Shown here one piece after another: positions 34,105-35,103 of a DNA stretch of 64,000 nucleotides; position 1 is the first letter of the stretch, and each line of letters begins with the position of its first letter. A program made the position numbers and the translations under genes. The notes under the pieces were generated by a model that had not been told where the DNA came from, searched no databases, and saw nothing but the letters and a program-made list of their open reading frames with translations. Source of the stretch: Escherichia phage NHEP29; the sequence record PQ511150.1; one strand, written 5' to 3'.

Positions 34105-34143
34105 ATTATTTCCTCATTAGTTAATTCATTCTATCATCCGTTT

Positions 34144-34177
34144 ATAAAGCAAAAAAAGGAACTCCGAAGAGTTCCTA
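34144..34177 (-). terminator. intrinsic terminator (GC stem, UUCG loop, U7)
   Basis: minus-strand aggaactc-ttcg-gagttcct followed by ttttttt. Confidence 0.7.
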
Positions 34178-34348
34178 TCCACATAGTACGCCGTACAGAG
34201 GCTCATTTGAACTTTTAAATCGAATGGGCTTGTATGTAATAGTTCCTTCGGCTTTAGCTTTATCATAAGACTCTTTAAAACGTCTCATTCTTTCTGCTTT
34301 GCCTTTACGGATTTTATCGAAATTTTCAGAGGTCAGGTCGTTCGTCAT
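34175..34348 (-). CDS. possible small basic protein (57 aa)
   Basis: Stop codon overlaps terminator stem; below ORF-track cutoff. Confidence 0.35.
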   Translation of the reverse strand: MTNDLTSENFDKIRKGKAERMRRFKESYDKAKAEGTITYKPIRFKSSNEPLYGVLCG

Positions 34349-34387
34349 GCATAATCACCTCTCAGAAAATACCTAAATCGATTTCTC

Positions 34388-34594
34388 TCATCGTTTCCAC
34401 CATTTCTTAACTTGAAATGAATCAACCCACACGAGTTGTTTTGGGTCTGCCTTTACAATAGGCGGACAAACTTCTGTAATAGAACCGTCGTGGTATTCCT
34501 TTTCAGAGATTTTAACACAAAGAGGACCTCCCAATTTAAGGGTGAACCCTGCATTCAGCTTCAGACGTTTAAACTTTGTTTGAACTAGCGCCAT
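34388..34594 (-). CDS. hypothetical basic protein (68 aa)
   Basis: Listed start is TTG; first ATG at Met6 preceded by GAGGA; overlaps upstream gene end by about 26 nt. Confidence 0.45.
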   Translation of the reverse strand: MALVQTKFKRLKLNAGFTLKLGGPLCVKISEKEYHDGSITEVCPPIVKADPKQLVWVDSFQVKKWWKR

Positions 34595-34892
34595 TAATGA
34601 TGTCCTCAATAGCCTGACGAGTAGTAACCCACTGGATTTTAATTAACTTGTCATTATATGGTTGTCGTAGAATATCCCGAGATTTCTTAATAGCATATTC
34701 GTAAGCTTCGAAGTTATTTTGAATTGCTGCTTCTTGAGCATGAGCATAAAGACGGTTTAGTTCAAAACGATTCTTTTTAAGAATCTTTTCGGATTTTTTA
34801 CGTGCTTCAGCTTCATTTTTCTTTTGGATTTCTTGTAGCATTTTAGCTACTGCATCTTCTGCTTCTTTATTTTCAATAATTTCGGTAGTCAT
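34569..34892 (-). CDS. hypothetical coiled-coil protein (107 aa)
   Basis: Lys/Glu-rich; 1-nt gap to upstream gene. Confidence 0.55.
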   Translation of the reverse strand: MTTEIIENKEAEDAVAKMLQEIQKKNEAEARKKSEKILKKNRFELNRLYAHAQEAAIQNNFEAYEYAIKKSRDILRQPYNDKLIKIQWVTTRQAIEDIINGASSNKV

Positions 34893-34893
34893 A

Positions 34894-35103
34894 TTATCTC
34901 ATTAAATTAAAATAAAAACGTCCATCCTCTTCAATACAGAACTCATACTCAACCGGAGTCCCATTTATCGAAAATGACACGTCATGTGGGTCCAAAGGGT
35001 CGATGTCAAAATTAATTTTAAATTCACGACCCAACAGTTTTACCAAATAAGGGATTGCTTCGTCAAAAGGTTCTTCTAAGTAGTTAGAGATGTCAATTGT
35101 CAT
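34894..35103 (-). CDS. hypothetical protein (69 aa)
   Basis: Listed 34894..35187 overlaps gene 55; start set at Met29. Confidence 0.4.

Follow-up and report, generated by a model that had tools for sequence, protein, structure and literature searches.

The interval between genes 47 and 55

What occupies the site between genes 47 and 55 of an RB69-like phage, where T4 carries the gene for its 400-amino-acid (aa) alpha-glucosyltransferase (alpha-gt)? We analyzed a stretch of 64,000 nucleotides (nt) from Escherichia phage NHEP29 (PQ511150.1), hereafter called the window, in which 988 bases separate the two genes. The interval contains four open reading frames (ORFs) of 57, 68, 107, and 71 aa, a predicted intrinsic terminator, and a putative middle promoter. 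All genes of this region lie on the minus strand, and no ORF in the interval comes near 400 aa. The features of the locus are as follows:

33085-34104, minus: gene 47, SbcD-like recombination endonuclease subunit, 339 aa (phrog_100, E 1.6e-135); left boundary
34128-34151, minus: MotA-box middle-promoter-like site (TGCTTTA, N11, TAGAAT), a match to the T4 middle-promoter consensus
34150-34176, minus: predicted intrinsic terminator from a consensus scan (8-bp stem, UUCG loop, U7 tail)
34175-34348, minus: a-gt.2 ortholog, 57 aa (Pfam DUF5486, E 4.5e-28)
34388-34594, minus: a-gt.3 ortholog, 68 aa from ATG (phrog_1648, E 1.1e-34)
34569-34892, minus: a-gt.4 ortholog, 107 aa (Pfam DUF2654, E 1e-27)
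34894-35109, minus: a-gt.5 ortholog, 71 aa from MRM, or 69 aa from the RB69-annotated start at 35103 (Pfam DUF5491, E 1e-11)
35093-35650, minus: gene 55, late sigma factor, 185 aa (phrog_234, E 6.9e-68; gp55 in the RB69 annotation); right boundary

Noncoding sequence in the interval amounts to only 70 nt (34105-34174) and 39 nt (34349-34387); the first of these is the entire gap between a-gt.2 and gene 47, which leaves no room for an alpha-gt gene of ~1.2 kb. An earlier reading of this DNA—the original prediction—had held that alpha-gt is missing here and that the interval carries only a terminator and three to four ORFs of 57-107 aa. Both points stand, with the ORFs numbering four. One correction concerns the right end, which is not fully intergenic: the 3' end of gene 55 shares 17 nt with a-gt.5 (or 11 nt if the RB69 start is used), and T4 has such an overlap too. 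The upstream MRM start of a-gt.5 is favored by alignment with T4 MRLTINLS, and the mechanical ORF start of a-gt.3 is a TTG at 34609, upstream of the ATG used for the 68-aa product.

Which phage does this arrangement belong to? The DNA of 33000-35700 is 98.3% identical to that of RB69, and its identity to other Mosigvirus records reaches 98.9%. The 47-55 interval of RB69 (AY303349) has the same gene order (47 / a-gt.2-.5 / 55) and the same terminator, and it differs from that of the window by point differences only. The RB69 annotation calls the four ORFs a-gt.2, a-gt.3, a-gt.4, and a-gt.5, “similar to T4,” and all four proteins are 98-100% identical to those of RB69 and JS09 (98%, 99%, and 100% to RB69 for a-gt.2, a-gt.3, and a-gt.4, with a-gt.4 also 100% identical to JS09). 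The gp47 of the window is identical or 99.7% identical to Mosigvirus gp47, 76-78% identical to that of Tequatrovirus, and 67% identical to that of Jiaodavirus. The window is thus part of an RB69-like phage of the family Straboviridae, subfamily Tevenvirinae, genus Mosigvirus.

T4 (NC_000866) shares much of this layout, as 47, a-gt.2, a-gt.3, a-gt.4, a-gt.5, and 55 are orthologous and of the same order and strand, and a terminator-promoter unit lies downstream of a-gt.2. Unlike the window, however, T4 has an extra block of ~2.2 kb (47.1, alpha-gt, mobB) between this unit and gene 47, and the small proteins of the two phages are only 46-70% identical: 70% for a-gt.2 (73% to RB14), 70% for a-gt.3 (70-72% to T4 and RB14), 55% for a-gt.4, and 46% for a-gt.5. 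Of these proteins, a-gt.4 is kept in 9/9 relatives from eight genera and is still 41% identical in Krischvirus GEC-3S. What the small proteins do is hinted at by none of our searches: profile searches of the PDB with a-gt.2 to a-gt.5 found no sequence relatives, Pfam matches were to DUFs only, PHROGs label them “unknown function,” and our literature search found one incidental mention and no functional work. A “head maturation protease” label that phrog_17354 would give a-gt.2 is not credible, the family being 62 aa long.

Search for glucosyltransferases

Could alpha-gt have been broken up or moved rather than be missing? With T4 alpha-gt as query, tblastn against the interval returned only matches of E > 1 at a relaxed word size and nothing at E <= 1 under default settings. 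Likewise, T4 alpha-gt, T4 beta-gt, and RB14 beta-alpha-gt found no tblastn match at E <= 1 under default settings anywhere in the 64-kb window. In RB69, BlastP searches of the whole proteome with alpha-gt, beta-gt, and beta-alpha-gt were negative as well (Thomas et al. 2018, PMC6024577). The original prediction had named an alpha-gt elsewhere in the genome, or one split across the small ORFs, as grounds for abandoning it; in the window neither turned up, and the ORFs proved to be the orthologs described above.

It is therefore exceedingly improbable that the small ORFs represent a degenerate or split alpha-gt or that the gene moved within the sequenced region. A split gene could be read into residues 18-43 of a-gt.5, which align with alpha-gt 317-342 at 38% identity (E 0.003 in a two-sequence comparison), and a relocated one into the best relaxed tblastn match, at 48579-48340 (word size 2, E 0.023); both are weak and at chance level. 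We rejected the latter match, since it lies in a P-loop ATPase-like ORF and disappears under default settings. Each small ORF belongs to a family of its own (DUF5486, DUF2654, DUF5491, and PHROGs families) with a T4 ortholog, and because a-gt.2 to a-gt.5 sit beside alpha-gt in T4, they cannot be its remnants. The scant noncoding sequence in the interval also speaks against either version. We give as little credence to a deletion mutant or an assembly artifact peculiar to this sequence, for which we found no supporting evidence, as at least 80% of 33000-35700 (2.7 kb) is found as one contiguous match in 146 independent phage records. As a side observation, the 333-aa ORF at 47725-48726 (minus), into which the spurious alpha-gt match falls, has weak matches to P-loop/AAA and STAND NTPases (E 2e-4 to 7e-3).

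A missing alpha-gt at the 47-55 site does not by itself show an absence of glucosylation. The site alone is not diagnostic because Karamvirus RZH has no alpha-gt there, yet homologs of beta-gt and beta-alpha-gt are reported from Karamvirus CC31 (PMC6024577).

A cytosine-arabinosylation cluster between uvsX and gene 43

If cytosines are not glucosylated in this phage, what modifies them instead? The original prediction had suggested that another modification chemistry replaces glucosylation, and the region between uvsX and gene 43 lends this support. In T4, segA, beta-gt, 42, imm, and imm.1 lie between these genes. The window has there the following genes, whose functions are assigned after Table 1 of Lee et al. 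2026 (PMC13326640) and whose domains are from Pfam and NCBIfam:

18164-24711, minus: RB69-type cytosine-arabinosylation cluster, collinear with RB69ORF045c-055c, flanked by uvsX (16893-18065) and gene 43 (24752-27463)
18164-18712, minus: kinase-like ORF
18714-19613, minus: candidate arabinosyltransferase 1, 299 aa, GT-B fold, at the position of T4 beta-gt
19613-20329, minus: thymidylate-synthase homolog, 238 aa (Pfam Thymidylat_synt, E 2.3e-15), at the position of T4 gene 42
20372-20611, minus: ORF049c, 79 aa
20608-21768, minus: U32-family protein, RB69p050 (Pfam Peptidase_U32, E 9.5e-11)
21823-22224, minus: HAD phosphatase (NCBIfam capsule-biosynthesis phosphatase, E 4.3e-13)
22209-23894, minus: fused nucleotidyltransferase-kinase, 561 aa (NTP_transferase, E 8.5e-10, with a kinase-like C-terminus)
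24076-24711, minus: SIS arabinose-5-P isomerase (Pfam SIS, E 1e-10)

The proteins of this cluster are 98-99% identical to their RB69 counterparts, and the whole of RB69ORF045c-055c, known from the published RB69 / DLP3 pathway to arabosylated 5-hydroxycytosine (PMC13326640), is present in the window. Where a T4-type glucosyltransferase would lie, in the uvsX-42 slot, the window has a kinase-like ORF and, next to it, the GT-B protein of 299 aa. The GT-B transferase is syntenic with the thymidylate-synthase (ThyA) homolog, which is 99% identical to RB69ORF048c (gp48), the 5-hydroxy-deoxycytidine monophosphate (5-hydroxy-dCMP) synthase, and only 25% identical to T4 gp42. Genes for sugar-nucleotide supply—SIS isomerase, phosphatase, and kinase-nucleotidyltransferase—complete the set. 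The 299-aa ORF is one intact frame corresponding to RB69ORF047c plus ORF046c. The 2003 RB69 record splits both this transferase (ORF047c/046c) and the nucleotidyltransferase-kinase (ORF053c/052c), whereas each is a single ORF in the window, which is consistent with frameshift errors in that record. In many relatives, the ThyA-homolog gene is still annotated as “dCMP hydroxymethylase” or “thymidylate synthase.”

RB69 DNA contains arabinose rather than glucose and was earlier described as carrying arabinosyl-hydroxymethylcytosine (Thomas et al. 2018, PMC6024577). The base has since been identified as mono- and di-arabinosylated 5-hydroxycytosine; gp48 was shown experimentally to turn dCMP into 5-hydroxy-dCMP using O2, and gp46:47 and gp3 were proposed as the arabinosyltransferases (Lee et al. 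2026, PMC13326640). We consider it very probable, at roughly 90%, that the site between 47 and 55 is variable, with Mosigvirus having its “empty” form, and that the phage decorates its cytosines with arabinose and does not glucosylate hydroxymethylcytosine. In such a phage, the thymidylate-synthase homolog would make 5-hydroxy-dCMP, phage enzymes would then make an activated arabinose donor, and GT-B arabinosyltransferases would put one or two arabinoses on the 5-hydroxyl; the genes for these steps would be those in the window at the T4 beta-gt/42 locus. Our own support for this comes from gene content and orthology, from searches of the window that met no glucosyltransferase similarity, from the GT-B fold of the 299-aa protein, and from proteins nearly identical to those of RB69.

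Several points weigh against this interpretation. Our glucosyltransferase search covered 64 kb of about 168 kb, and such a gene could lie elsewhere in the isolate. The second transferase, RB69ORF003c, maps at 2520-3620 of RB69 and so ahead of the window, whose start corresponds to ~5.9 kb of RB69; it has no match in the 64 kb, and a homolog is to be expected some 2-3 kb before the window begins. The DNA chemistry is taken from the literature, where arabinosylated 5-hydroxycytosine in virion DNA has been shown for RB69 only, and is only to be expected for this isolate, and the promoter and terminator of the interval are consensus matches only. That RB69 lacks alpha-gt, beta-gt, and beta-alpha-gt was published in 2018 and its chemistry was revised in 2026, such that the absence reported here was already known.

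Gene order and the distribution of alpha-gt

How common is the site without alpha-gt among T4 relatives? T4 has the order 47 / 47.1 / a-gt / mobB / a-gt.2-.5 / 55, and RB14, a T2-type Tequatrovirus, has the same order minus mobB. Jiaodavirus KpV477 has 47 / a-gt / four small ORFs / 55. The order 47 / a-gt.2-.5 / 55 is found in Mosigvirus RB69 and JS09 and in Gaprivervirus VR26, and Dhakavirus FB, Karamvirus RZH, and Krischvirus GEC-3S have a site without alpha-gt and with two or three small ORFs. In the comparison of gene orders that the original prediction called for, RB69 matches the window and the T2-type RB14 carries alpha-gt.

In our phage collection, 657 records have alpha-gt homologs and 2568 have gp47 homologs; among T4 relatives, intervals without alpha-gt are thus more common than intervals with it, and in Mosigvirus they are the rule. 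As read from identity bands and organism counts, alpha-gt homologs at least 90% identical to the T4 protein belong to T4/RB-type phages of Escherichia, Shigella, and Yersinia, those near 66% to phages of Klebsiella and Raoultella, and about ten matches are weaker.

A predicted terminator-promoter unit upstream of gene 47

The boundary of the variable segment is marked by a compact regulatory unit. On the minus strand, the predicted terminator forms the hairpin AGGAACTC-UUCG-GAGUUCCU (34157-34176) followed by U7, with a computed fold of -13.2 kcal/mol (z = -2.95), and it begins within the a-gt.2 stop codon; the same terminator is annotated in PhAPEC2 and other relatives. The MotA-type site comes next, then a ribosome-binding site, GAGGA, and the gene 47 start codon, ATG. 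From its agreement with the T4 middle-promoter consensus, we infer that 34128-34151 probably acts as a middle promoter. Matches to TGCTTYA-N11-13-TANNNT number 13 across the window, where 1.8 would be expected. Nine are on the minus strand, which is the coding one; besides the site described here, these include 18750-18774, 23923-23947, and 54459-54484.

Across genera, phages keep the hairpin-plus-GCTTTA unit downstream of a-gt.2, immediately ahead of the next gene, whichever that is. In the window, RB69, JS09, and VR26, that gene is 47, and in RB14 and KpV477 it is alpha-gt. Another unit of similar make-up—a stop codon, a GGGC-UUCG-GCCC hairpin, (T/A)GCTTTA, and a -10-like hexamer—lies 3' of alpha-gt in T4, RB14, and KpV477 (at L009 4196-4248, L002 about 4585-4640, and L005 4424-4506 among our alpha-gt-carrying phage loci). 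The flanking units have only about 30-40 nt in common.

Two candidate extensions of this picture were rejected. A second terminator-like hairpin within a-gt.3 (34423-34438) has no U-tract, lies in coding sequence, and is of a kind about as frequent as expected by chance. Nor do hairpin-plus-MotA-box units form a window-wide family of the PeSL kind discussed below, as only one is found on the coding strand. The only other composite unit of good geometry in the window is on the plus (noncoding) strand at 27523-27566, just past gene 43, where the hairpin ATGGGAC-CGAA-GTCCCAT is followed by TGCTTTA and a -10-like hexamer.

Loss or primary absence of alpha-gt

Because such units are repeated on both sides of alpha-gt in T4, RB14, and KpV477, the gene looks cassette-like: it appears to behave as a cassette between short direct repeats of the regulatory unit, of which the window would be the one-copy, empty form. 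This site holds a-gt.2 to a-gt.5, which are conserved, then a single terminator plus middle-promoter unit, and then gene 47. In Tequatrovirus (T4, RB14) and Jiaodavirus, alpha-gt lies inserted between the unit and gene 47, with 47.1 as an addition in Tequatrovirus and the homing endonuclease gene mobB as one in T4. In T4-like phages, composite terminator/promoter (PeSL) motifs have been published as mediators of indels (Comeau et al. 2014, PMC4122927). The unit described here resembles them in that a short stem-loop and promoter bound an indel, on both sides of the variable gene where it is present; it differs in that its promoter part matches the MotA (middle) consensus, whereas that of PeSL is an early promoter, and in that it is present as a single copy on the coding strand of the window rather than as a repeated family. 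PeSL motifs of T4-like phages are reportedly also the subject of Arbiol et al. 2010.

Was alpha-gt lost from Mosigvirus, or was it never there? We put at about even odds a secondary loss, in which alpha-gt was already present, between gene 47 and the terminator-promoter unit, in the ancestor shared by Tequatrovirus, Mosigvirus, and Jiaodavirus, and Mosigvirus deleted it through recombination between the flanking hairpin-plus-GCTTTA units, after or while acquiring arabinosylation. Such a history fits the presence of alpha-gt at one and the same site in T4, RB14, and Jiaodavirus KpV477. It also fits the divergence of the gene—about 66% identity between T4 and Jiaodavirus, which tracks the 69% of gp47 and 77% of gp55 between T4 and KpV477—as expected under vertical descent. 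The window gp47 is nearer to Tequatrovirus than to Jiaodavirus, so that, among these three genera, a single loss explains the pattern more economically than two gains would, and the direct repeats that flank alpha-gt resemble motifs published as mediators of indels. However, Gaprivervirus, Dhakavirus, Karamvirus, and Krischvirus also have no alpha-gt here, so that several losses would be needed, and the similarity of the flanking units is short, with one composite unit on the coding strand of the window.

Only a little less credible, though falling short of even odds, is a primary absence, with the empty site ancestral for Tevenvirinae, Mosigvirus never having had alpha-gt, and Tequatrovirus and Jiaodavirus having gained the gene, together with the regulatory unit that trails it, by independent or lateral insertion. 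The empty form is found in most genera sampled, and alpha-gt in only about a quarter of the gp47-bearing phage records; the cassette edges fall exactly at the repeated regulatory units, as expected of a mobile module, and T4 also gained mobB at the same junction. Independent insertion does not predict, however, that alpha-gt should occupy the same site in two genera with a divergence matching that of its neighbors. Overall, the identity comparisons mildly favor loss in Mosigvirus, but repeated gain keeps some probability, as several other genera have no alpha-gt either.

A U32-family protein and a possible anaerobic route

Does the cluster hold a means of making 5-hydroxycytosine where oxygen is scarce? 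The U32-family protein at 20608-21768 might be a prephenate-dependent, O2-independent C5-hydroxylase that gives 5-hydroxycytosine in an anaerobic host, in parallel to gp48, although we hold this role to be tentative and rather less probable than not. O2-dependent and O2-independent enzymes occur in pairs in other pathways, with TrhO and TrhP making 5-hydroxyuridine (ho5U) in tRNA and UbiI/H/F and UbiU/V acting in ubiquinone synthesis. The U32 enzymes RlhA (5-hydroxycytidine at position 2501 of 23S rRNA, ho5C2501), TrhP (ho5U34 of tRNA), and UbiU/UbiV are oxygen-independent hydroxylases, and the oxygen donor identified is prephenate (PMC5727448, PMC6599085, PMC6747719, PMC10990095). Hydroxylases of this kind have a Peptidase_U32 domain and conserved cysteines for an Fe-S cluster. 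In Lee et al. (2026, PMC13326640), RB69p050 has no other label than “sugar or heterocycle reductase,” and neither U32 nor prephenate nor chorismate comes up in the text.

The phage U32 protein is at least 80% identical in 221/221 phage records that carry it, where the neighboring transferase goes down to 44-69%, and ten Cys are invariant in 28 homologs; its NCBIfam UbiU match is weak. In Kanagawavirus KLB31, a Klebsiella phage, a type II chorismate mutase (Pfam CM_2, E 1.3e-9; L014 6155-6394) lies between the U32 gene and the ThyA homolog, in a slot that corresponds to 20372-20611 of the window. Chorismate mutase is the enzyme that makes prephenate. Homologs of this mutase occur in 48 phage records in all, the 47 others being from Enterobacterales hosts, and among the matches listed the gene adjoins a ThyA-homolog gene in 30/30 and in several also the U32 gene. 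The strictly aerobic Acinetobacter is absent among the organism groups listed for the U32 gene, yet the transferase is found in 57 records of Acinetobacter phages. Nor is there a U32 gene in the published DLP3 cluster (PMC13326640).

Two observations argue against an anaerobic route. Dhakavirus coliphages, as judged from organism and identity counts, apparently have the transferase without the U32 gene, and in Mosigvirus the mutase slot holds the apparently unrelated 79-aa ORF049c, found only in that genus. We rejected ORF049c as a diverged chorismate mutase, as it has no Pfam or NCBIfam match, 24% identity to the KLB31 mutase, and an hhalign probability of 0.5%; no PDB relative of it was found, and its AlphaFold2 model is weak (pLDDT 63.5). 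As a hypothesis, a prephenate-dependent anaerobic route to 5-hydroxycytosine is reasonable and testable.

Implications

The finding mainly places the window correctly, as that of an RB69-type (Mosigvirus) phage whose cytosines are expected to be arabosylated 5-hydroxycytosine rather than glucosyl-hydroxymethylcytosine. To what was known, we add the view of alpha-gt as a probable cassette between repeated terminator-promoter units, with the empty site in the window, and a possible, testable anaerobic route to 5-hydroxycytosine suggested by the association of U32 and chorismate-mutase genes. If that route exists, the replacement chemistry would have an unrecognized oxygen-independent branch, encoded in the window but outside the 47-55 interval. 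The type of modification bears on sensitivity to type IV restriction, to glucosyl-specific defenses, and to Cas and restriction cleavage, as well as on the long-known inability of this group to recombine with T4.

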